A stretch of DNA of 64,000 bases from Candidatus Bathyarchaeota archaeon (GCA_963775895.1 CAVZKL010000013.1:1-64000), one strand, 5' to 3'. Counted from the stretch's first letter, positions 35,658 to 47,126 are shown. The notes: generated from the letters alone by a model not told the origin. Numbers and translations are program-made.

Positions 35658-36713
35658 TCAAATTATAGCATAAGGATAGGAGTGTCCGCCAGGATGCAGC
35701 TTACCTTTTATTGGAATATCGTGTCCACAGACGGGACAACGCATATCCTTCGTCAAGTTCCAACGGGTAATCGTGAAGCTGTAACGCTTTATCACCATTT
35801 CATTACAGTTCGGACAATAAGTGCTCTCACACGGATGACCCGCCACGTTTCCAACGTAAACGTAGTCCAAGCCAGACTCTTTTGCGGCCACGTAGGCTTT
35901 TTCAAGAGTCTCAACAGGCGTCGATCCAGTTCCAGTTAGCTGATAATCAGGGTGAAAACGCAGCAGATGGAAGGGTGTTTCCTTCCCTATTCCATCTCTG
36001 ATCCAACTGGCAAGTTCTCTTATTCTTTCCAAGGAGTCTCCCGTCTTTGGTACAACCAGGTTAGTGATTTCGATGTGAATGTTGTTTCTTCTCATCTCTT
36101 TCAAAGCTTCGAAAATTGGCGCGACAGAAGGAACAGCTGAAAAGGTCTTGTAGAATTCAGGATCAGCGCCACCCTTGAAATCAACAGTGGCGGCGTCAAG
36201 ATAAGGAGCTATCGTCTTGACAGCCTCAGGTGTCATGTATCCGTTCGTTACAAACGTGTTGAAAAAACCAACTTGACGCGCAAGTTTGGACGTGTCATAA
36301 GCGTACTCGAAAAATATCGTCGGCTCAGTGTACGTGTAGCTTATTCCTTGGCAATCATTGTCTCTGGCAGCTTTCACGACTTCTTCAGGCGGGAAATGTT
36401 TGCCAGCAATTTTCTTCTCTTGACTTATCATCCAATTGTCACAGAATTGACAGCGAAAGTTGCACCCTATTGTGGCAACGGACATGACCATTGCTCCCGG
36501 ATTGAAGTGTGACAACGGCTTCTTCTCAATAGGGTCAATACCCGCCGAAACGGCTTTGGCATAGTTCAACGAATACAGGACGCCGCCCTCGTTCTTTCTT
36601 ACGAGGCAGAACCCTGTTCCGCCATCGTTTATCCGGCACTTTCTCGCACAGAGAAAACAGTTTACTCTTTTTTCGTCGATCTTCTCGTACAGCATCGCTT
36701 CATGAAGCGACAA
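35658..36713 (-). CDS. AmmeMemoRadiSam system radical SAM enzyme
   Basis: DPIEKKPL, GCNFRCQFCDN, YTYTEP, RFHPDY, TYCPNC. Confidence 0.88.
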   Translation of the reverse strand: MSLHEAMLYEKIDEKRVNCFLCARKCRINDGGTGFCLVRKNEGGVLYSLNYAKAVSAGIDPIEKKPLSHFNPGAMVMSVATIGCNFRCQFCDNWMISQEKKIAGKHFPPEEVVKAARDNDCQGISYTYTEPTIFFEYAYDTSKLARQVGFFNTFVTNGYMTPEAVKTIAPYLDAATVDFKGGADPEFYKTFSAVPSVAPIFEALKEMRRNNIHIEITNLVVPKTGDSLERIRELASWIRDGIGKETPFHLLRFHPDYQLTGTGSTPVETLEKAYVAAKESGLDYVYVGNVAGHPCESTYCPNCNEMVIKRYSFTITRWNLTKDMRCPVCGHDIPIKGKLHPGGHSYPYAII

Positions 36714-36756
36714 CCAACTACCCTCTTGAGTTCTCGTTCGGGTCTCAGCTTATAAA

Positions 36757-37378
36757 TTAAGCCCTCTCAGTTTTCTCTGCAGGCTGCTCTTTGAGCTCAA
36801 AGACTAATGGGGAAGATGTCGTTTTGATATCCAATTCGATGTCGAACAATCCTTCCAGCAGACCTGCCCATATGTCAGACTCGTCGATGAAGGGCGTTTT
36901 GATGAGTATATACTTGTCCTTCAAATAGAAATCACCGAACCCCTGAACTCGGAGCCGCTTGAAAACATCCGTGCCATTTTTCCCGTTCCTGAGTACTAAG
37001 TCCCAAGGTTGTCTCAAGAGAGACTTTGATGGCTTCGCCCATGTTTCTCCCGATTTCGCGCCACTTATCTTCAGGCGTGTTCTTTATCAGCACGTTGAGG
37101 AGTTCGACGTTGACAAAGGCAATGCGGCTTATTCCACAATAGTATTCCCCTGGAAAACGCCAGTCATAAATCATCATGCTGCGGTACACGTCAAGCATTT
37201 TGGAGATCAGAGGCTTAATTCCCGGCTCTTTTCCTTCACGGATTAAGGAGTCGATGAATTCTCTTTCATCTTTGTCAAGGATTATCGTCGTTCTTCTCGG
37301 TGAGCCTTGGTCTTTATCAATCATTTCTCGGAGTTTCTTTTCTTTGTCGTCCTGCATAGATGATATATCTTGCAGCAT
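36757..37378 (-). CDS. Hypothetical protein (RHH-like N-terminus), frameshifted near 36985
   Basis: Two overlapping ORFs (36932-37378 and 36757-37017) read as one protein. Confidence 0.55.
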
Positions 37379-37422
37379 ATTTTATATAATTTGCTCCTCA
37401 GCCGAAGCATATTCAAACATAA

Positions 37423-37767
37423 TCAGGATCGAACCATCACCAAGAGCATCTTGAACCGTTTAGTTGCTTTCAAAGCGTGCGGCTCGTTCGCCGGTATGAC
37501 AACCATTTCTCCTGCCTTCACAATCGAGGACTTGCCGCCGATCGTGACATTGGCTTCACCGTCGATGATTTGAATCAGTGCATCATAAGGAGCGGTGTGT
37601 TCACTCAAACTCTCAGTCTCGTCAAAAGCAAAAAGCGTAACCGTTCCAGCCTTCTTGTCAATGATGGTTCTGCTTACGACCGAGCCCTCCTGGTAGTCTA
37701 TTAAGCCAGTCATTTTTGTCGGTAATGAAAACTCTGATTTCGGAATCTTGTCCCTAGATCGCTTCAA
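37423..37767 (-). CDS. Cupin domain protein
   Basis: LFAFD..LSEHTAPYDA..PANEPHAL. Confidence 0.88.
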   Translation of the reverse strand: MKRSRDKIPKSEFSLPTKMTGLIDYQEGSVVSRTIIDKKAGTVTLFAFDETESLSEHTAPYDALIQIIDGEANVTIGGKSSIVKAGEMVVIPANEPHALKATKRFKMLLVMVRS

Positions 37768-37876
37768 ATGCTCACCCTCTTCACATGCTGAAACGATGAT
37801 TAACGATTAATGATATATAATCTTATCAGCTAGATTGACCGAACGATTTTTAATGCAGGCAAAGTACTGTTTAACT

Positions 37877-37933
37877 TGCCGATGACGAGCCATATCCTCT
37901 GAAAAAATGATGTACTCTAGGGTATCTGAGGCA
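37877..37933 (+). ncRNA. C/D box guide sRNA
   Basis: TGCC-GATGA(C)-13 nt-CTGA(D')-AAAA-ATGATG(C')-13 nt-CTGA(D)-GGCA, with TGCC/GGCA terminal stem, intergenic, TTTTAA about 25 nt upstream. Confidence 0.8.
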
Positions 37934-37947
37934 GAAATACCAACCGA

Positions 37948-38178
37948 CTAAACGAGTATCTTCTTTTTGATAAGATACCACATGAGCACTAGCCCAGCGA
38001 TTACCATTGCGACGCCGCCAATAGTGGCAGTACGGTAGCTCCGGTGAAGAATATCAGTCACAGCATATGTCGCATAGGGTCCTCCGAACAGCAGTACTGC
38101 CATGATAAGTATCAAGAGCATCTTCAAGTACTTCGAACGGTTTCCTGCGGCTCCTGTCTTTTGTTTGTCTTCCGACAT
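37948..38178 (-). CDS. Small two-TM membrane protein
   Basis: 76 aa, two hydrophobic helices. Confidence 0.6.
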   Translation of the reverse strand: MSEDKQKTGAAGNRSKYLKMLLILIMAVLLFGGPYATYAVTDILHRSYRTATIGGVAMVIAGLVLMWYLIKKKILV

Positions 38179-38220
38179 TTGTCCTGCGCCTCGGTGGTAC
38201 GTTAAAATTGACGCTTTCTC

Positions 38221-38877
38221 TTATAACCCTTCCTTAACTTCGTTGCCTAAAGCTTTCATCAGGAACTTGAACACGGCGAAACCAGCTCCACGATCTGCCC
38301 TGAAACCCGTCGTGGCTCCCAGCAGACAAACTCCTTCCAATCCGCGTTCCTTAGCAAGCCCTAATATTAGACCAGTGGCGCCAACGACTCTTCCTTTGCT
38401 GTAGATGACAGCGCCCTTTTCCATAAAATCCAAAGCCAGTCGCGATGAGGTGGCTGCAACGTACACCTGGGCCTTTTCCTCCTTGACAGGTGCTCCCCCG
38501 ATCGTGACGATAAAATTGCAGCCTCTTTTTTGAACAAAATCTAACGTTTCACTACAAAGCGAATAATGAGCTACGACATCGTCAAAAGACGGTTGGGTGT
38601 CCCCAGTCATTATTATGAAGTTGTTCTTCTCTGTGGTTGCGGAATAGAATTCGTACCGTGGCAAGTGGCAAATGCCTTTTCCGTTCACTGACACATAATC
38701 TGGAAATGAAGGGGCGTACAACTCTGCAAATAGCTTAGCCCCACAGAACTTCATCAACAGATAAGCGGCAATCTTGCCCACGTTTCCGAAGCCAGGAAGA
38801 CCCTGAACAAAGATTGGATTCTTCAGTTCAGGATTATAGAGTTCTCGAAGGTAAGGCCCGTTCAAACCCTTCAACAC
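38221..38877 (-). CDS. PAC2 family proteasome assembly chaperone
   Basis: GLPGFGNVGKIAA, GDTQP, VTIGG, VGATGLILG. Confidence 0.85.
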   Translation of the reverse strand: MLKGLNGPYLRELYNPELKNPIFVQGLPGFGNVGKIAAYLLMKFCGAKLFAELYAPSFPDYVSVNGKGICHLPRYEFYSATTEKNNFIIMTGDTQPSFDDVVAHYSLCSETLDFVQKRGCNFIVTIGGAPVKEEKAQVYVAATSSRLALDFMEKGAVIYSKGRVVGATGLILGLAKERGLEGVCLLGATTGFRADRGAGFAVFKFLMKALGNEVKEGL

Positions 38878-39109
38878 CAGACGGAATAGGTAATCATTGC
38901 AGGTCTAAAACGTTTCCGTATTCTTCGAAACCGCCACCAAAGGCCCTTCCAGGCAGGCTGTTGCATTGACCGATACTGTTAAGTTATTTGTGGTGACCGA
39001 AATTACTTGGAATAGAACATGCAGCCTCTGCTAGAGCCAGATTATCGCAAAATAGTTTAACCTGAACGAAGATATGAGTACAAGCAATATTTGTAAGAGA
39101 TGTGAATAG

Positions 39110-41095
39110 GTGCCAGAAGGCGAAAAGAACCCTGAATTAGATAGTTATTTTGGCACTGTCAAACACATACCTTACGGCAAAATACTCTGCTACATCACCT
39201 ATAAAATCAGAAAAAACACTCCTGAAGAGAACGTTAGGCAACGTATTGCAAAAAGTTTGGTTCAAGAATATCGTTATGGAAAAGAAGACATTGACGTAGA
39301 ATTTCCCATCAAGCTTGGCTCGTCAAACCCCAGAATTGATCTTCCGATTTTCTTAGAGGGTTCGTCTCACATACAAGAGAATATCTACATTGTCATCGAA
39401 ACAAAAAAAGAAAGCATTAAACCGACCGACAAAAAAGAAGGAGTAGATCAACTTAAGAGTTACATGGCAGCGTGCGTAAATTCTCAATTTGGAATGTGGA
39501 CAAACGGATTGGAAATACAATGTTTACAGAAGCTTGAAGAAAAAGGCAAGTACATCTTCAATGACATCATAGATATACCTTCAAAAGGAAAAACTATAGA
39601 CGAATTTGAAAAGCCCACTTTTGCTCGTTTGCGTCCTGCTGTAGACTTGCGTGCGGTCTTCAAGAGATGCCATAATTACATTTACGGAAATCAGGGATTA
39701 CCTAAAGACAAGGCGTTCCATGAACTCTTGAAACTTATCTTCAGCAAAGTGCGAGACGAACGAGAATCAAAGGAAGTTCAATTCTACACCACAAACAAAG
39801 AATTGCACTCGACAACTGGTCATCTTAAGGTTCGAAATAGAATCGGTAACTTGTTTGAAGAAGTTAAGTCCCAATATCCGCATATCTTCAGTGACCAAGA
39901 TGAAAAAATAGAACTAAACCCGATGGTATTAACCTACGTTGTTAACCAAATTCAACCATATTGCTTCCTTGAGACAGATGCGGATGTTAAAGGGGCTGCG
40001 TATGAAGAAATAGTCGGAGCTAATCTTAGAGGTGATCGAGGAGAGTTCTTTACTCCGAGAAATGTTTGTTCAATGGCTGTGGAGATGCTATTTTCAACTG
40101 TTCGTACAGAGTTGTGGAAAGATCTCAAAATAATTGATCCAGCGTGCGGTACTGGTGGTTTTCTGATAGCAATACTGAACTATGTCAAGGCCAAGTTCTA
40201 TGAAGAGGAATTTCTGAAATGGAATGGTGATGACCAGACTGCAACGCAACGAACCATGGACAGAATCAAACTATATTGCGAACACAGCCTCTATGGAATT
40301 GACATTAATCCTTTGCTCGTCAGAGCGACCCAAATGAACGAGGTAATGCATGGAAACGGTTCTGGAAATCTCTTCTCTGCAAATTCTCTCTTGTCGCCTA
40401 CAGAATGGCCAACCAACATGAGAGAAAAAATCGATCTGGCAAAATTTGATTTTGTGTTCACGAATCCTCCGTTTGGAACCAAGATCCCCATAGATGATCC
40501 GAATATCCTTTTGCAGTATGATTTGGGGCATATTTGGAGAAAGATTGGAGAACACGAATTTGAAATGACGGACAAATTGCGCAATTCAGTTGCTCCTGAG
40601 AAACTGTTTATTGAAAGATGCTTCCAGTTTGTTAAGCCAAAAGGCAGAATAGCTATAGTTTTGCCTGATAGTATTCTCTCTAATCCGAATTGCACATTCA
40701 TCCGTTATTGGATTTTAAAGCAGATGAAAGTAATAGCGAGTATAGATTTGCCAACAGAAACTTTCTTGCCCTTTGTTGGAACCCAAGCAAGTCTTCTCAT
40801 TTTACAGAAGAAAAAGGTTGATGAAATAGGCTTTGAAGATATAACAAAAGCCGCTCTTCAGTACGAGGTTTTCATGGCGACTCCAACAAAAGTTGGCCAT
40901 GATAGGAGAGGAAATCCAACTTATGTGCGAAGCCCAGAAGGCGATGAGTTATTCGTTGATATTGAAAAGCAAATTACACGAATTGATAAAGGACAGAAGA
41001 TTAAGGAAAACATTGTGCTTTCTGAAAGGGTAAGAGATGATGACCTTCCTGAAGTCAGTAGACTCTTTACATCTTGGTGGAGTGATAATAAGTGA
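39110..41095 (+). CDS. Restriction endonuclease-N6-adenine methyltransferase fusion (HsdR_N-like + HsdM-like)
   Basis: PEENVRQ, RID..IETKK PD-(D/E)xK core; GEFFTP, DPACGTGGF (motif I), NPPF (motif IV). Confidence 0.9.
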   Translation: MPEGEKNPELDSYFGTVKHIPYGKILCYITYKIRKNTPEENVRQRIAKSLVQEYRYGKEDIDVEFPIKLGSSNPRIDLPIFLEGSSHIQENIYIVIETKKESIKPTDKKEGVDQLKSYMAACVNSQFGMWTNGLEIQCLQKLEEKGKYIFNDIIDIPSKGKTIDEFEKPTFARLRPAVDLRAVFKRCHNYIYGNQGLPKDKAFHELLKLIFSKVRDERESKEVQFYTTNKELHSTTGHLKVRNRIGNLFEEVKSQYPHIFSDQDEKIELNPMVLTYVVNQIQPYCFLETDADVKGAAYEEIVGANLRGDRGEFFTPRNVCSMAVEMLFSTVRTELWKDLKIIDPACGTGGFLIAILNYVKAKFYEEEFLKWNGDDQTATQRTMDRIKLYCEHSLYGIDINPLLVRATQMNEVMHGNGSGNLFSANSLLSPTEWPTNMREKIDLAKFDFVFTNPPFGTKIPIDDPNILLQYDLGHIWRKIGEHEFEMTDKLRNSVAPEKLFIERCFQFVKPKGRIAIVLPDSILSNPNCTFIRYWILKQMKVIASIDLPTETFLPFVGTQASLLILQKKKVDEIGFEDITKAALQYEVFMATPTKVGHDRRGNPTYVRSPEGDELFVDIEKQITRIDKGQKIKENIVLSERVRDDDLPEVSRLFTSWWSDNK

Positions 41096-41814
41096 CTGAA
41101 CCGCGAGTCAAGTTAAAAGAAATCGCTCCTGCAAAAATAGGGCACACAATAATCAGCTCAAAGTGGTTGATGGAAGGTGAAGAAAGACTAGATGCAGAAC
41201 ATTACACGCAAGAAGGATTCAGATTTAAAAAAATACTCGAAGAAAGTGGTTATCCTCTTTGGCCTCTTGGAAAATGGAAGATTTTTAATCCTCCTCCTCT
41301 AAAGCGACATTTCATCGAAAAATCAGCTATGTCTGTTCCCTATATCATGCCATCAGAGATGTTTGATTTCAAAGTAACGCCAACAAAGTATGTGGCTCCA
41401 AAGAAAATCAAGAATGTAGAAGACTGGTATGTGAAAGAGGGCTGGATTATTCTTTCGCAATCAGGGAATGCAGGTCGCCCACTGTTTGTAACAAAGGAAT
41501 ACGAAAACATTGTTATCTCTCAAAACGCAATAAGAATTGTGCCAGATGAAGATTCTAAAGCTGGCTTTGTCTATGCTTACCTATCCACGAAGATGGGGCA
41601 ATCACTTTTAGGTCAAGAACAATTCGGCGTAACGGTAAAACACTTACGTCCTCATCATGTGGCTAATATTCCTGTTCCTGAGATTGACTCTGAAGCATCA
41701 AAACGAATCCACCGACAGATTGTTGAGGCTGCACGTTTAAGAAGTGAGGCAAATAGAATCGAGAATGAAGCTATAGCAGAATTGGATAGACTTTTGACCA
41801 AGGTGAAGTCCTAA
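41092..41814 (+). CDS. Half-size specificity subunit (single TRD, HsdS-like)
   Basis: ERLDAEHY, ILSQSGNAG, FVYAYLSTKMGQ, NIPVP and a terminal helix; overlaps the MTase stop (GTGA). Confidence 0.8.
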   Translation: MTEPRVKLKEIAPAKIGHTIISSKWLMEGEERLDAEHYTQEGFRFKKILEESGYPLWPLGKWKIFNPPPLKRHFIEKSAMSVPYIMPSEMFDFKVTPTKYVAPKKIKNVEDWYVKEGWIILSQSGNAGRPLFVTKEYENIVISQNAIRIVPDEDSKAGFVYAYLSTKMGQSLLGQEQFGVTVKHLRPHHVANIPVPEIDSEASKRIHRQIVEAARLRSEANRIENEAIAELDRLLTKVKS

Positions 41815-41908
41815 GCCCTTTACATGTTTTCGAATCTAGGTGGTATCCTGTGGGCATACCACAAGACATATATACTGTAAGGTATCTTATAGTATACCTG
41901 TGAGACGT

Positions 41909-42823
41909 ATGGCATGCAAATATTGTGGCTCTGAAAAAGTTCGAAAATGGGGCAAAGTCAAAGGCCAACAGGTCTACAAATGCAAGGACTGTGGACACCG
42001 ATTCTTCGAGAACGGCAACTTCTCAAAAATGAGAGTTGAAAAGAATCTAGTCGTTGCAGCACTGAACTTCTACTATGACGGTCTGAGCTTACGCAAGGCA
42101 CAGAGAAACCTAGAACAAATCTTCGGAGAAAGAATAAGCCAAGTCACGATTCTGAATTGGATAAAGAAGTATTCAAAGCTAGTCAAAGATTTCGTCACGA
42201 CCCTAACACCACAACTCTCAGGTTTATGGCATGAAGACGAAACCATGCTGTCATGCGAAGGGCGAAATGTTTGGTTCTGGGAAATGATAGACGAAGACAC
42301 AAGATTTCTAGTAACGTCTCACGTCTCAGGAACAAGAACCCTAGAAGACACAATAGCAGTATTCAAAAGAGGACTTGAACAGAGCAAGGTCAGACCTAGA
42401 GCCGTATTCGTGGATGGAAGCTTTGTGTATGAAACAGCTTTCAACAAAGTCTTCTACACGATGAGAAAAGACATAAGACCTGAGCTGGTGCAGAGAGTCG
42501 GAATACGAGCGAGAGAGACAAACAATATCGTTGAAAGGATGCATGGGACAGTCAAAGATCGCACAAGATGTATGAGAGGACTCAAAAGCTTCGAGTCTAC
42601 AAAGTCACTTCTCGAAGGTTTCACAATTCACTATAACTATGTTAGACCTCACCAAAGCCTAAACGGAAAGACACCTGCACAAGCAGCTAGAACACAAGCA
42701 CCTAGCACGTGGAAAGGTTTGATAGATGAAGCAACAAAGCACGAAGCACAAGTATTGGCAAAAGCAACAAGTCCTGAGACAAGAATAGAAGAAGGAAAAA
42801 AGGTGGAGGCGATTATAAAATGA
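41909..42823 (+). CDS. IS6/IS240-family DDE transposase with N-terminal Zn ribbon
   Basis: CKYCGS..YKCKDC; HTH SQVTILNWIKK; WHEDET, FVDG, NNIVERMHGTVK; YNYVRPHQSL. Confidence 0.9.
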   Translation: MACKYCGSEKVRKWGKVKGQQVYKCKDCGHRFFENGNFSKMRVEKNLVVAALNFYYDGLSLRKAQRNLEQIFGERISQVTILNWIKKYSKLVKDFVTTLTPQLSGLWHEDETMLSCEGRNVWFWEMIDEDTRFLVTSHVSGTRTLEDTIAVFKRGLEQSKVRPRAVFVDGSFVYETAFNKVFYTMRKDIRPELVQRVGIRARETNNIVERMHGTVKDRTRCMRGLKSFESTKSLLEGFTIHYNYVRPHQSLNGKTPAQAARTQAPSTWKGLIDEATKHEAQVLAKATSPETRIEEGKKVEAIIK

Positions 42824-42987
42824 GAAAAGTGTTAGTTGCACTTCCAGAGAATGTGGCTGATCTCCTGAACAAGGAGCTTGTCGGAACGATAGGAGAAACT
42901 TGCTCAGATACATTGCGAACAATCATAATGAGCTGGCTCTCAGAGAAAGGCTACTTGACAAAAGGTGGGAAACATGGCAAAGAATAA
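42820..42987 (+). CDS. Ribbon-helix-helix (CopG-like) small protein
   Basis: Hand translation MRKVLVALPENVADLLNKELVGTIGETCSDTLRTIIMSWLSEKGYLTKGGKHGKE; ATGA overlap with the transposase, GGAGG SD. Confidence 0.65.
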   Translation: MRKVLVALPENVADLLNKELVGTIGETCSDTLRTIIMSWLSEKGYLTKGGKHGKE

Positions 42988-43126
42988 ACCGAAACGAGAA
43001 CTTGCAGATGAAATTGATCTACTAGACACTATGCTTTCAAGCCTTGTAGAATTGCTTGAAGAAAAAGGCGTATTATCTCAAACGGAATGGGAAAAGCGAA
43101 TAAAAGAACGAATTACCGTCAAATAG
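42974..43126 (+). CDS. 50-aa hypothetical helical protein
   Basis: Hand translation MAKNKPKRELADEIDLLDTMLSSLVELLEEKGVLSQTEWEKRIKERITVK; AGGTGG SD. Confidence 0.6.
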   Translation: MAKNKPKRELADEIDLLDTMLSSLVELLEEKGVLSQTEWEKRIKERITVK

Positions 43127-43412
43127 ATGTTCAACAATAGATGTTCAAGTTGGCAAAGGTTAGCATGGGAAATTCTGCCAACTTTACCTTACCTTTACCA
43201 AATACCAATAAAATTCCTTATATGACGTAGCACCTAGACGTATAACCCGATGTTCAGGGCAGGTACGACTAAAGTATTCCACTTACCAACTTTGGTTTTT
43301 GCCTGCCCTGAACAATTTGCTTAAGCATGACGATATTGGAACGTCCACGCGTCGACCTTGCCCGCCTATGTATTGCAGGTACATAGCGTGGTCAATTTAT
43401 GGTCAATGGCCG

Positions 43413-44069
43413 TCATGCTTTCTGAGCTTGTTCAGGGCTGGCAACTATGGTCTGAGTCAGTTTGTCAGTGGCACGGAACCATTCTTTAATTCGCCCGCGT
43501 TTTCCCTCACTTTTTCCTTCCCTTCGCTCTAAATATCCTTCAATTGTCATTATGTCAAGAGCCGACTTCATCGTTTGACCAAAGCGGAGAGTTTGGGTCA
43601 TTAATGGTGTTAGAGAACGCTTAGAAAACTCGTTAACCCCAAAATGTTGAATTATAGTGCCTGCAAATTGGAATATGATGCTAGAGCGATCTCTAATATT
43701 CCCTAGACAGAAGGTTCGTCCTCTTGCTCCTCCCGAAACTTCTGCGAAGAGCGTTCCGTCTGGACGACGATAGTACCTATATTGACCGAAGTCCTTGCCT
43801 TGCCCTCTACTTTTGGATGCTTCAAAACCAATTTGCGTCCCTAAACCGAATACGTCACTTAATCTAGTAGCTTCTGATTTGGGTTCACGTATTGGTGGAT
43901 GAATTTGGATAGATGCAAAACCATCGTTGTCAACAGAGATTATGCTCACTTCACTGGCATCTTTGTCAGTTAATGTGAACAGACCATCACTTATCAAGCC
44001 ATTAGCCCCTAGCCTGAATCTCAAAGGAAGAGGTAGTTTTCTGATCTTAGTTTCACTTGGTTTTTGCAA
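43413..44069 (-). CDS. Hypothetical protein with possible C-terminal winged helix
   Basis: 218 aa; KSALDIMTIEGYLERREG..EWFRAT. Confidence 0.55.
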   Translation of the reverse strand: MQKPSETKIRKLPLPLRFRLGANGLISDGLFTLTDKDASEVSIISVDNDGFASIQIHPPIREPKSEATRLSDVFGLGTQIGFEASKSRGQGKDFGQYRYYRRPDGTLFAEVSGGARGRTFCLGNIRDRSSIIFQFAGTIIQHFGVNEFSKRSLTPLMTQTLRFGQTMKSALDIMTIEGYLERREGKSEGKRGRIKEWFRATDKLTQTIVASPEQAQKA

Positions 44070-44264
44070 TGTCTTTCACTGTATTCCACTTACCAATTCC
44101 TTTACTTGCAGCGCAAGTTGTATTTAAAATAATCTACTCATAAAGAACGCAACATTGCTCATCAGCCCATGCCGATGTCAGAAGCCTAGTCTACCACAAA
44201 TAACTTAACAGTATCGCTTTGACCAAAAAGATTTAAGAGGGCAACGCTCAGCTTTAGAGGCAGC

Positions 44265-44364
44265 AGCGGGGTGGGGTAGCCAGGATTAACCCGCTGGGCT
44301 CATAAGAGCAAGAATGCTCCGAGAAACCCAGAGATCAGTAGTTCAAATCTACTCCCCGCTACCA
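44265..44364 (+). tRNA. Initiator tRNA-Met(CAT) with a 21-nt intron at 37/38 (44305-44325) and encoded CCA
   Basis: AGCGGGG/CCCCGCT acceptor with A1:U72, GGG/CCC in anticodon stem, CAT at 44301-44303, GTTCAAATC T-loop, bulge-helix-bulge; upstream AAAAGATTTAA promoter. Confidence 0.95.
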
Positions 44365-44434
44365 CAAATAAAGTGTGCGTTATAACAAAAAAAGTCGCTA
44401 AAAAAATCGTGGCTTTTGCTGCAAGTTGGAGATG

Positions 44435-44629
44435 CTAACCTCTTCCTTTTTCTTCTTTTCCGAAGTACGCTGTCCACTTGAGTTTTCTTGCGTCTCTTCC
44501 GAAGAACGAACTCTTTCGGCATTTGCTTGAGCAGAACCACAGAATCGACCCGTCGTTCTTGATGTACATCATCCCTGTGCCCGCTGGGAACTCGTTACCG
44601 CAGAATGAACATTTTCTTGATCTTGGCAC
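44435..44629 (-). CDS. rpl24e: 50S ribosomal protein L24e
   Basis: CSFCG..GTG.MY..DG..FCSSKC..LKWT. Confidence 0.95.
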
Positions 44630-44660
44630 GGTCGATGTCGCCCCTCAATTGCTATCTAGC

Positions 44661-44891
44661 TTATCTGTTGATTTTCTTGGCTTCTCTTTCAGTTTCTCTA
44701 AGCATCAACGTGTCTTGAACTCTGACCGGCCCCTTAACGTTACGTGTTATGATGCGTCCTTTGTCCTTGCCTTCAAGGATCCTCACTCTGACTTGACTGA
44801 TCTCGCCCGTCACACCTGTGCGTCCTATCACCTGAATTACTTCCGCAGGTGTAAGCTCGACTTGTTGAGCTTCTCTGGCTTCCTTGCTCAT
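44661..44891 (-). CDS. rps28e: 30S ribosomal protein S28e
   Basis: [22 protein letters not shown]. Confidence 0.95.
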
Positions 44892-45280
44892 TACGTGGAT
44901 CCTCGTCTGACCTGCTCTACCCTAGCAACTATTTCTTTCACTAACCCCGTGGCTTCTCCTTCTTTGACGATGCACGCCGCGCCCGCTGGAACGTCAATTC
45001 CTATCGCAGTACCTATTTTGTCCTTGTTTGGCACGTATATGTAAGGGATTTTTCTTTCTTCACATAACAGGGGTAGATGTGCAACAACTTCTGGAGGTTC
45101 GACGTCTTCTGCAATGATCACAAGCTTTGCCTGAGCCCTTTCAATGGCTTTGGTTGTTTCGTTGGTTCCCTTTCTAACACTGCCTGTTTTGGCAGCTATT
45201 TGCAGGGCTTCATAGGCCGCATCCGCGAGCTCCTTTGAAACCTCAAACTTCACGAAGAATGGTTTAGACATAAGCCTCAC
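44891..45280 (-). CDS. rpl7ae: 50S ribosomal protein L7Ae
   Basis: [29 protein letters not shown]. Confidence 0.95.
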
Positions 45281-45414
45281 CCTTCAAATGCACAGTCTAA
45301 TCAATACTTCCTCTTTATCAAGGTTTCGACAACAAAAACACGAGTTTTGAGGACTGTAAGAACCACAATCTGTTGAGGCATATAGAAAGTAAGAAGAAAG
45401 GTTTTTGATGGGAG

Positions 45415-45654
45415 TTACGCCTTCTTGGCAATCGTAATCTTGACAACCAACAATCCAAGGCAGTGAGGACAGGATTTCCGTCCTCGCTTCAGATGGAAAG
45501 TCCCGCCACAGTTGATGCAAACTTGCAAGCTTTGGATGCATTTCTCGCCAAGTGCAGCGTATTTGAGCGACGCGCTACCTATCTTTTCCCGTTGCGATTG
45601 CCATTCTGTGTCACATTCCAAACAGTTTGATGATGTCTCAGGCATAATCTGCAC
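45415..45654 (-). CDS. Possible small Cys-rich protein
   Basis: Three CxxC pairs (CLEC, CINC, CPHC); start uncertain. Confidence 0.4.
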   Translation of the reverse strand: MQIMPETSSNCLECDTEWQSQREKIGSASLKYAALGEKCIQSLQVCINCGGTFHLKRGRKSCPHCLGLLVVKITIAKKA

Positions 45655-45788
45655 TCACGCGGTAAGTCGTTGCCGACTTTGCTGGCCGTGACGCCGGTCA
45701 GCTTTGCTTTTTGCAGATTTCTATCGATAATTGATATAAGATGGGTGAAGGGTTTAAAGCTACGCTTCAGAACATCACCGTTCTAAAT

Positions 45789-46082
45789 CTAGTACGGTGG
45801 AAACCTCACATGGGTAAAGCCGCGAGGAATCCTGCGTCTGACGAACAGGTACAGGGTGACAGCTATCACAAAACTGACCACAACAACAGTGAAGTCTGAG
45901 GCGTAAGACTCCGGCGAGTTAAATTGGTTGGATCCTCTTTCAAGAGAACCGAATTCGCCCAGAAACCTGGGCACGTTCCCACTGGTGTCTTGGCGGATTA
46001 AGGCAACAGCAATCAGAGGAGCCAGTGTCACCGCGATTCCAAGAATGATGGCGATCGTCAGATAGAGTAGGGATTTCCTCAC
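45789..46082 (-). CDS. Two-TM membrane protein
   Basis: Hydrophobic N- and C-terminal helices. Confidence 0.6.
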   Translation of the reverse strand: MRKSLLYLTIAIILGIAVTLAPLIAVALIRQDTSGNVPRFLGEFGSLERGSNQFNSPESYASDFTVVVVSFVIAVTLYLFVRRRIPRGFTHVRFPPY

Positions 46083-46155
46083 TGTGTTCGCTTCTCCAGT
46101 ATACGGAATATGTCATCACTATTAGTTCTACACTTTAGAACAGAATGTAAAACGC

Positions 46156-46614
46156 TCAGAATGGTCTCGCTCTCCACAATCTGATGGTTTCTATCCAGAA
46201 AATAAGCAATGCAATGGCGCCAAAAGCAACCGTGTAGAAGCTGGGCGGAACCTGCGTGATGAAGCTCACGGTCAGATAAGTAGCCAACATAGTTGTAAAC
46301 AGTACGGAATAGAAGAGATATCGAGGAACAAGGAAGTTGCCCATGCGCGTGAAGAATCGCAAGATTCCAACTTTGACTTCTTCCTCAAGAACATATTCCC
46401 CTGTGCCCTTCTTCTCTACTAGTCCTAGATCTTGCAGTTTCTGAAGATGATGCACCGCTATGCTCGGACTGGAAAAACCTAAGGCCCGTTGAACTTCACG
46501 GACGCCAACCGTGTGTGTGGACTGCTGCAATAAATACCAATAGACGAGCAGGGTTTTTCCTTTCAGTGCTGATTCTAGGAAAGCAGCATCGAATTCGTGC
46601 GGGTTTTTCGACAC
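46156..46614 (-). CDS. Membrane-anchored winged-helix regulator
   Basis: GVREVQRALGFSSPSIAVHHLQKL..GLV plus two C-terminal TM helices. Confidence 0.75.
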   Translation of the reverse strand: MSKNPHEFDAAFLESALKGKTLLVYWYLLQQSTHTVGVREVQRALGFSSPSIAVHHLQKLQDLGLVEKKGTGEYVLEEEVKVGILRFFTRMGNFLVPRYLFYSVLFTTMLATYLTVSFITQVPPSFYTVAFGAIALLIFWIETIRLWRARPF

Positions 46615-46865
46615 TTACCATCGCCAGTACAATTTATGGAGCAAGTTGTTAAAAGATTAATCATCCAACTTGTGAAGTCACTTCACTCATTCACGCTTAT
46701 CAGTTTCCACTTTCAGAGGACACTGCATAAGCAAATGAACCTGAATTGGGCTGAATTGACGCGATTTTCAAAAAGGAGACAGCTTCCCTCAGATTTGAGC
46801 GTAGAAAAGTTTAAATAGGCTGCTTCGTTGAAGAATTTTGCTTTTGCTGAGGGGAATCCGCAAGT

Positions 46866-47126
46866 TTGCAGAGATTAGGCCTGATACTTCACGTTAGTCC
46901 GAGCAAGAACATGATAATTAAAGTTGAAAAAATCCCGAGAATTGGCGAAACAGTCGTGGATGAAAATCTGAAACCGGTCGGAACGGTTTTTGATCTTCTT
47001 GGCCCGGTGTCTTCACCATACGTCTCTATAAGACCCACGGTACGTGACCCCGAAAAACTCGTGAACAAACCAGTGTATGCGATCCCCTCCCAGAAGAGAA
47101 AGGAGAAGAACAAGTATGGACGATAG
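46866..47126 (+). CDS. gar1: H/ACA RNP Gar1/Naf1 protein
   Basis: [25 protein letters not shown]; usual position upstream of tfb. Confidence 0.85.

Follow-up and report, generated by a model that had tools for sequence, protein, structure and literature searches.

The locus examined here raises a simple question: is the segment that separates a PAC2 gene from a tRNA gene, in a stretch of DNA from Candidatus Bathyarchaeota archaeon (GCA_963775895.1, CAVZKL010000013.1:1-64000), a mobile element and, if so, of which kind? The whole stretch analysed, 64,000 nucleotides long, is called the window, and positions are counted from its first letter. An earlier note, made from the sequence alone, had proposed a non-composite transposon, in which one IS6-type transposase moves a restriction-modification (R-M) system. 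According to the present analysis, the segment is very probably a single-transposase cargo transposon, of the kind known as unit transposon or transporter insertion sequence (IS), belonging to an archaeal branch of the IS6 family taken in its broad sense. All the features of a unit transposon were found: a single pair of ends, a transposase accompanied by passenger genes, a target duplication, an empty site and passengers differing among copies. Ends, duplication, empty site and variable cargo on a shared core all agree with the unit or transporter transposon proposed in the earlier note.

The ends and the empty site

The element, its boundaries and its neighbours are the following:

38972-44215: transposon, 5,244 bp, with six open reading frames (ORFs), three of which are cargo
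38963..38971, no strand: left copy of the target duplication, GCATTGACC, read from the flank and from the empty-site comparison
38972..38994, plus strand: left terminal inverted repeat (TIR), 23 nt, GATACTGTTAAGTTATTTGTGGT, exact match pair
44193..44215, minus strand: right TIR, 23 nt, exact match pair
44216..44224, no strand: right copy of the target duplication, GCTTTGACC, its third base differing from the left copy
38221..38877, minus strand: PAC2 (proteasome assembly chaperone family) gene, left neighbour, outside the element (Pfam PF09754, E 4.8e-29)
44265..44364, plus strand: intron-bearing tRNA gene, right neighbour, outside the element (detected by ARAGORN, unnamed there)

The sequence GATACTGTTAAGTTATTTGTGGT occurs exactly twice within the window, while none of 100 dinucleotide shuffles gave two matches, and the pair is single in the 1.77-Mb, 28-contig genome, even when up to 6 mismatches are allowed. 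The 9-bp flanks, GCATTGACC and GCTTTGACC, are identical at 8 of 9 positions. Perfect 23-bp TIRs 5.2 kb apart, flanked by nearly identical 9-mers, had been claimed beforehand: the former are borne out by the exact pair at 38972/44215, the latter by reading both flanks. A repeat search lengthens the inverted pair to 24 nt by one added C/G pair; since these two bases are the last of the left 9-mer and the first of the right one, 23-nt repeats with a 9-bp duplication are the consistent reading. The G+C content of the element, 40.8%, against 46.8% and 47.5% in the 10-kb flanks, was counted toward a foreign origin.

The element is a true insertion between the divergent PAC2 and tRNA-Met genes. The PAC2 locus was taken from 40 relatives, 29 loci were compared by BLAST and the junction was examined in 16. 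A PAC2 orthologue is present in all 41 related genomes, and in 13 of the 16 (7 of the 10 belonging to the same genus) it adjoins the tRNA gene, about 130-170 nt apart, uninterrupted and with only one copy of the 9-mer region; the remaining three loci (L008, L013, L014) feature another neighbour or a contig end, and none carries an insertion. In L006, the nearest relative, the site reads GCTGTTGCGTTGACCAAAAAC, where the 9-mer region is present once. In public metagenome contigs from two of the four runs compared, X3 and X4, which belong to different studies, 38969 is followed immediately by 44224; their PAC2 flank differs at 19 and 24 of 670 nt, an identity of about 97%. Over the cargo, X3 and X4 have no coverage, to which no weight is given beyond the bridging contigs. 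Pieces of the element, with 0-1 differences, are present in X1 and X2. The empty allele that the earlier note had expected is therefore at hand, both as an uninterrupted PAC2-tRNA site in relatives and as contigs bridging the same boundaries. The absence of the element from strains whose flank is about 97% identical makes this a recent insertion by the standards of the species. Contigs carrying the empty allele cross 38963-38969 with no listed difference, the third base of the left 9-mer included, so that the left copy looks ancestral and the T in the right copy looks like a later change.

The neighbouring tRNA gene is detected by ARAGORN without being named, and Rfam, at the gathering threshold, reports no family within 36000-47000, tRNA gene included. 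Its anticodon loop, CTCATAA (CAT, Met), and its beginning, AGCGGGG, suggest an initiator tRNA-Met. In our reading, the insertion point would lie just upstream of the TTTAAG box of the tRNA, leaving the conserved block upstream of PAC2 unbroken. Twelve nucleotides of the inner part of the right end (TACCACAAATAA, 44192-44203) are repeated at the 3' end and trailer of the tRNA (44359-44370); because the trailer is not conserved in four relatives, the match is probably due to chance.

The transposase, the small genes A and B and their relatives

Three adjacent genes in the middle of the element make up its conserved part:

41840..42823, plus strand: IS6-type DDE transposase with an N-terminal four-cysteine zinc ribbon (NF033587, PF13610)
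42820..42987, plus strand: small ORF A, 55 aa, ribbon-helix-helix-like, its ATG overlapping the transposase stop (ATGA)
42965..43126, plus strand: small ORF B, 50-53 aa, helical, with a probable ATG at 42974, overlapping the end of A

The transposase is the only recombinase recognised inside the element by Pfam and NCBIfam scans, which found neither resolvase nor integrase. It had been described as single and mid-element, and is indeed so: its ORF is separated from the left end by 2,868 bp and from the right one by 1,392 bp, with other ORFs on either side. It matches the NCBIfam model NF033587 (IS6 family) with 134.6 bits (cutoff 125, E 3.6e-39) and PF13610, DDE_Tnp_IS240, with E 5.7e-20; the zinc-ribbon models NF048018 and NF050000 match residues 25-57. 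Alignment with 11 relatives puts the probable start at ATG 41909, resulting in a protein of 304 aa, the ORF itself opening at 41840. D133, D192 and E232, invariant in 12 of 12 aligned transposases, would by their position be the catalytic DDE triad; in the window sequence, K239 follows E232 by seven residues, and a triad followed by a K/R residue is a feature of the IS6 family in the broad sense.

The ends of the element read GATACTG, with G1 and G7 present and A at position 2, where the IS6 consensus starts with GG and the sister clade reads GGTTCTG. Two broad-sense features of the family are lacking, namely an 8-bp duplication (9 bp here) and the format of a transposition-only IS of about 0.7-1.8 kb (5,244 bp here). 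When 72,556 plasmids were searched with the transposase, all 1,142 matching records were less than 60% identical; the matches listed are 22-30% identical and annotated as IS6 family, the best among them being clostridial, of the ISCpe7 type (27-29% identity, E about 1e-24), where the zinc ribbon is covered as well. As stated in the relevant sections of Harmer & Hall 2019 (PMC6807381), IS6 ends feature GG and a G at position 7, many archaeal members do not start with GG, and, as the authors argue, the archaeal and long zinc-finger groups should leave the family. The assignment to IS6 thus stands in the broad ISfinder/NCBIfam sense, where 134.6 bits exceed the cutoff of 125, and fails in the strict sense of Harmer & Hall: an identity of 22-30%, a zinc ribbon and ends starting with GA do not fit strict IS6/IS26 membership.

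Relatives of the transposase were found in 14 of 41 kin genomes, source genome included, and 12 of the corresponding elements were worked out by hand: their ends begin with G(A/G)T(A/T)CTGT, lie 2.9-8.0 kb apart and, in L063, L064, L066, L067 and L068, are flanked by unambiguous 9-bp duplications. A scan of one genome per species produced 290 transposase relatives, the best 80 loci of which were kept; 10 of these are on the same contigs as the hand-checked set. The 80 loci are mostly from Bathyarchaeia, the others being contributed by Nitrososphaerales, Woesearchaeota, Archaeoglobus, Hadarchaeota, Methanomethylicus, Thermoplasmatota and Methanothrix, with two Dehalococcoidia among them. A motif-anchored search for ends, in which a pair had to match at 19-22 of 22 positions, identified clear pairs in 52 of the 80 loci, with spans of 1,870-7,988 bp, the shortest element being 1.87 kb long; homologous transposases are thus bracketed by distant TIRs with differing cargo, as had been anticipated. 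Perfect duplications of 9 bp flank 32 of these 52 elements and perfect duplications of 8 bp 15, while 5 feature neither. Among the remaining 28 loci, three lower-scoring pairs (L086, L141, L151) nonetheless have perfect duplications. Taken together, the 35 target sites with a perfect 9-bp duplication are weakly symmetrical (C-N7-G): 19 of them start with C and 18 end with G. In viral contigs only one distant transposase relative was found (L156, 35% identity), with no convincing ends (16/22).

Both ends of related elements open with GATACTGTTAAGT, the start of the left TIR, and the end sequence follows the transposase tree, being GATACTGT in the window's clade and GGTTCTGT in the clade of long transposases. 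With L076 and L077, whose transposases are 90% and 87% identical to that of the window, the element shares only the ends and the segment 41842-43132, at 84-85% nucleotide identity; L079, L085 and L092 likewise match it only in the ends and in this 1.3-kb core. The core consists of the transposase and the translationally coupled small genes A and B, and the cargo varies even among the closest relatives.

A quick maximum-likelihood tree of 59 rows, with support limited to the Shimodaira-Hasegawa-like approximate likelihood ratio test (SH-aLRT) and several long branches, splits four short bacterial IS6 transposases, used as outgroup, from all the rest (SH-aLRT 99). Archaeal transposases of about 300 aa form a group of 43 rows (98), in which duplications are of 9 bp in 33 cases, of 8 bp in 6 and absent in 4; long SWIM-type transposases form a group of 10 (90), 8 of which feature 8-bp duplications. 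In the window's own clade of 20 rows (100), a 9-bp duplication is found in 18 and no duplication in the other 2. Two sequences, ISCpe7 and a haloarchaeal IS6, branch off basally to the archaeal group, on long branches that are not resolved. The tree requires five or more changes of duplication length, which therefore characterises clades without being fixed. The 9-bp duplication, called atypical in the earlier note, does depart from the 8 bp of IS6, but is the rule within the window's clade (18 of 20).

Two observations concern the long-transposase, sister-type elements. One of them, clearly decayed, is found in the same genome (C17, 103663-106857): it is 3,195 bp long, its ends, GGTTCTGT..., agree at 19 of 22 positions, its 8-bp duplication, CGATTCCT, is perfect and its transposase is broken into three pieces. 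Three others, in the same genus (L069, L070 and L072, of 4,147, 4,259 and 6,570 bp), have common flanks, AACCCTTTATCA / CTTTATCA..., while the end sequence of L072 differs: they may represent either an old shared insertion with remodelled content or a preferred target site.

Genes A and B accompany the transposase in most elements. Hidden Markov models (HMMs) of A (29 sequences) and of B (28 sequences) were run on 57 elements: the A model matches 46, the B model 45, and both match 44. Among the 13 elements lacking an A or a B match, 10 belong to the clade of 380-440-aa SWIM-type transposases. In L116, L119 and L123, from Nitrososphaerota or unclassified hosts, A and B are fused as one ORF, which indicates that the two work together. 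Pfam contains no match for either protein. A looks like a ribbon-helix-helix protein: a profile search with A retrieved 1,611 metagenome protein clusters at E<=0.001, some named CopG/Arc/MetJ regulator by JGI, and a protein atlas places a natural A-B fusion near a 'putative Arc-type ribbon-helix-helix' (0.90) and near a cluster with RHH_1 on 29% of its members (0.89), both taken as leads only. Comparison of B with profiles of solved structures gave nothing meaningful. We suppose that A and B would act jointly, probably as a DNA-binding regulator or as a transposition helper. In a MAFFT alignment including the natural fusion, which was not used further, B was placed over the second helix of A (SDTLRTIIMNWLSEKGYL vs LDTMLSSLVELLEEKGVL), and the two may be distant duplicates of each other.

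Cargo genes

The cargo lies on both sides of the core, and the spacer following B contains additional repeated features:

39110..41095, plus strand: 661-aa fusion of a nuclease-like domain and an N6-adenine DNA methyltransferase (Pfam HSDR_N_2 1.2e-24, N6_Mtase 2.6e-32)
41092..41814, plus strand: 240-aa specificity subunit with one target-recognition domain (Pfam Methylase_S 1.3e-5; PADLOC specificity models)
43413..44069, minus strand: orf218, 218-aa cargo protein, function unassigned, no family match
43274..43289, plus strand: direct-repeat motif GTATTCCACTTACCAA, copy 1, downstream of orf218
44081..44096, plus strand: direct-repeat motif GTATTCCACTTACCAA, copy 2, 12 nt upstream of the orf218 start
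43299..43444, minus strand: long hairpin with 34-nt inverted arms, overlapping the 3' end of orf218

The start of the specificity gene overlaps the stop of the 661-aa gene by 4 nt. The fusion matches the PADLOC model MTase_II (2.3e-158), and among solved structures it comes closest to RM.BsaXI (8w0p, E 3.7e-34 over residues 178-573); a D...ExK pattern (IDLP...IVIETK) was read by eye in its translation. A nuclease-methylase fusion working with a separate specificity subunit is a feature of type IIB enzymes, shared with BsaXI and BcgI. In contrast, the subunit has here one recognition domain, theirs two, and the N-terminal nuclease domain did not align with BsaXI. We infer that the two genes encode a type IIB enzyme resembling BsaXI; its specificity subunit, having a single domain, would work as a dimer. 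The R-M system named in the earlier note is therefore present, as nuclease/methylase and specificity genes, though not as a classical pair of separate R and M genes. Such cargo would give the host a restriction-type defence, and may stabilise the element. The MADS defence system was considered and rejected: MAD2 reaches 636 bits against a cutoff of 720 and MAD5 203 against 400, the NCBIfam MAD5 model matching the specificity subunit (7.6e-60) only over profile positions 5-221 of 461, and NCBIfam and PADLOC scans detected no other mad genes within the element.

The third cargo gene, orf218, finds no match in Pfam, NCBIfam or PADLOC, and its best score in the protein atlas is 0.87, with unnamed clusters only. 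All of its 24 homologues are unnamed or 'hypothetical'; one of them, 49% identical, occupies the same place in the L104 element. The perfect 16-nt direct repeat GTATTCCACTTACCAA brackets orf218, and a near-identical motif, GTATTCCACTAACC, brackets its homologue in L104 (element coordinates 2221 and 3005); in each element, short inverted arms of differing sequence enclose the copy downstream of the gene. Thus orf218 may be a self-contained cassette, or the bracketing motif may be a binding site. The hairpin, unique in the genome, covers the last 30 nt or so of orf218, in the 285-nt spacer after B; the fold of 43285-43455 on the minus strand has an energy of -66.3 kcal/mol and a z score of -6.15, with 0 of 200 shuffles as good. 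Its possible roles include those of a terminator, of a small RNA and of a site of recombination.

The variety of the cargo was surveyed in 57 elements, namely the window element, 12 from kin genomes and 44 new ones, with an E threshold of 1e-3 for the first 13 and of 1e-5 for the other 44; 126 of 171 ORFs of at least 100 aa were annotated, 45 transposase ORFs being left out. DNA methylase or restriction domains are found in 24 of the 57, within N6_N4 methylase-Mrr fusions, Eco57I/MmeI-like type IIG enzymes, GmrSD, N6 methylases with an S subunit and a D12 methylase with a SacI-type nuclease. Other elements contain HicAB, PIN, NYN, SocA/Panacea, UPF0175, GHKL ATPases, ParA or ParB, and many hold unknown genes only.

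Nature of the element and mode of transposition

The general plan, one pair of inverted ends around transposition genes and variable passengers, is shared with the Tn3 and Tn7 families, in which defence systems are also common cargo. The likeness does not extend to the machinery: Tn3 and Tn7 transposases are unrelated, Tn3 features a resolvase and Tn7 several Tns proteins, and both produce 5-bp duplications.

The closest comparisons are with IS26, IS257/IS431, IS1216 and IS240, which feature the same IS240-type DDE transposase, G1/G7 and CTGTT in their ends and, likewise, one transposase and no resolvase. As described, they are 0.8-kb elements with one gene, 14-bp ends starting with GG and 8-bp duplications. 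In contrast, the window element is a single copy of 5.2 kb, with 23-bp ends starting with GA, a 9-bp duplication, a zinc ribbon and two extra conserved small genes, and its transposase is 22-27% identical to theirs. The ISCpe7 group (clade VII in Harmer & Hall 2019, clade h in Varani 2021, in the classifications set out there) has the same N-terminal zinc-binding extension, its transposases aligning over 80-86% of the window protein; its members are described as bacterial ISs of 1.2-1.3 kb without cargo, and sisterhood is not supported by the quick tree. Varani 2021 (PMC7986276) gives a size range of 0.7-1.8 kb and 8-bp repeats for the family, states that IS6 cargo moves only as pseudo-compound structures between two direct copies, and names a single IS6 transporter IS, ISDsp3, with one passenger. 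ISDsp3, from Dehalococcoides, is likewise an IS6-type element with a passenger gene; compared by description only, it is 1,456 bp long, with one hypothetical passenger and no intact zinc finger.

A pseudo-compound transposon of the IS6 type was rejected: one transposase gene and one pair of ends are found in the region, and the only other copy in the genome is decayed and distant. The single transposase and the single pair of ends also uphold the term 'non-composite', used in the earlier note.

As for the mechanism, the transposase would bind both ends and nick their 3' ends, which would then be joined to target DNA cut with a 9-bp stagger. Donor and target replicons would most likely fuse into a cointegrate with two copies of the element, as for IS26 and IS257, and host homologous recombination would resolve it, leaving one copy flanked by the duplication. 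We regard this copy-in step as evenly poised between right and wrong. The 5 of 52 elements without a duplication are compatible with a replicative element, and constitute no proof of it.

The element may otherwise be just as described and yet move by conservative cut-and-paste, with excision and no replicative cointegrate, an alternative which we consider unlikely, though not to be taken lightly. Intact duplications flank 47 of the 52 elements and most copies are single; a 5-kb element encoding no resolvase would depend wholly on host recombination to resolve a cointegrate; and the 9-bp stagger sets the enzyme apart from classical IS6. However, IS26 and IS257, the nearest characterised relatives, form cointegrates according to the sections of Varani 2021 (PMC7986276) devoted to them, elements without duplication are expected from intramolecular replicative events or from recombination between copies, and no second nuclease or hairpin-forming feature was identified.

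Whatever its route, the element could be a stranded relic, inserted once, now immobile and reduced to a mere defence island. The single intact copy in the genome, the mismatch in the duplication and the clear decay of the sister-type element on C17, with its transposase in three pieces, point in this direction. The intact ORFs of transposase, A and B, the identity of the ends at 23 of 23 positions and the recent insertion indicated by the strains lacking the element, about 97% identical in the flank, make this improbable.

The distance of the transposase from both ends, unusual for an IS, might also mean that the 23-bp ends belong to a different mobile element, of which transposase, A and B would be only passengers or a nested IS. 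This we consider very improbable: no inner copy of the ends is present anywhere in the genome at up to 6 mismatches, the ends start in IS6-like fashion (G1, G7, CTGTT) and track the transposase tree over 52 elements with unrelated cargo, and Pfam and NCBIfam find no other recombinase inside. Hardly credible, finally, is either an island targeted to the tRNA gene by a site-specific integrase, suggested by the 49 bp that separate the element from the gene and by the TACCACAAATAA match at its 3' end, or a chance inverted repeat around ordinary genes, since no integrase was found (Pfam, NCBIfam), the repeats are inverted and not direct, the insertion lies upstream of the tRNA promoter region and not in the 3' end of the gene, the 12-nt match is not conserved in the trailers of relatives, 0 of 100 shuffles gave such a pair and empty alleles exist.

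Several points weigh against the reading as an active unit transposon of the IS6 branch, or against parts of it. The genome contains only one intact copy, and mobility is deduced from sequence. In contigs with the empty allele the gap amounts to 5,254 nt, one more than the 5,253 of an exact absence, and the surplus base is located in the CC run which closes the 9-mer. The duplication contains one mismatch, and the insertion is thus not brand new; its length of 9 bp departs from the 8 bp of the family. Pfam and NCBIfam scans detect no resolvase in the element, and the cointegrate route is borrowed from IS26 and IS257, as presented in the corresponding parts of Varani 2021 (PMC7986276), from which the transposase differs widely (22-30% identity). 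No pair of ends at 19 of 22 positions or better was found in 28 of the 80 loci, many of which have too little flank; two of them, L115 and L117, are real elements, whose imperfect tips escaped the motif scan. Archaeal or long IS6-like elements, as treated in the pertinent sections of Harmer & Hall 2019 (PMC6807381), have not been the object of experimental work. Against profiles of solved structures, A gives only low-complexity matches to leucine-rich repeats and MazE6 at E 1.6, and the role given to A and B is a guess. The putative nuclease activity of the cargo is deduced from a Pfam domain, together with a motif recognised by eye.

The single-transposase cargo transposon remains the reading that we prefer, and the window element appears to be one more member of a family that looks large and undescribed, with 290 relatives among representative genomes and 1,611 clusters of A proteins in metagenomes. 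Cargo-carrying DNA transposons spread resistance and defence genes in bacteria; they were not detected in archaea, according to the relevant passages of Krupovic et al. 2019 (PMC6563490). Our literature search found no description of such archaeal elements, although supplementary tables, for example the IS tables of PMC6563490, might list some. While known relatives move genes only as paired copies, here a single IS6-type enzyme would mobilise, as a unit, defence cargo of various kinds and of 1-6 kb in length.

We put forward tentatively, as a possibility with somewhat less than an even chance, a broader joint reading: these elements, rather than being aberrant ISs, would form a separate transposon family with a three-gene module, in which the coupled ribbon-helix-helix pair A/B would accompany a zinc-ribbon IS6-like transposase as a new type of transposition helper or switch and cuts would be staggered by 9 bp, acting as a main vehicle for R-M and toxin-antitoxin genes in Bathyarchaeia, Nitrososphaeria and other uncultured archaea. 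If true, this would be the first widespread cargo-carrying DDE transposon family of archaea. The ends of the elements, being natural boundaries of the cargo, may be of help in finding new archaeal defence genes, and the compact set of transposase, ends and helpers is a candidate genetic tool for archaea. For the Bathyarchaeia themselves, in 23 complete genomes of which a 2025 census (PMC12669027) reports, in its section on the subject, no CRISPR-Cas loci, such elements would provide a concrete route for the horizontal exchange of restriction-modification systems.

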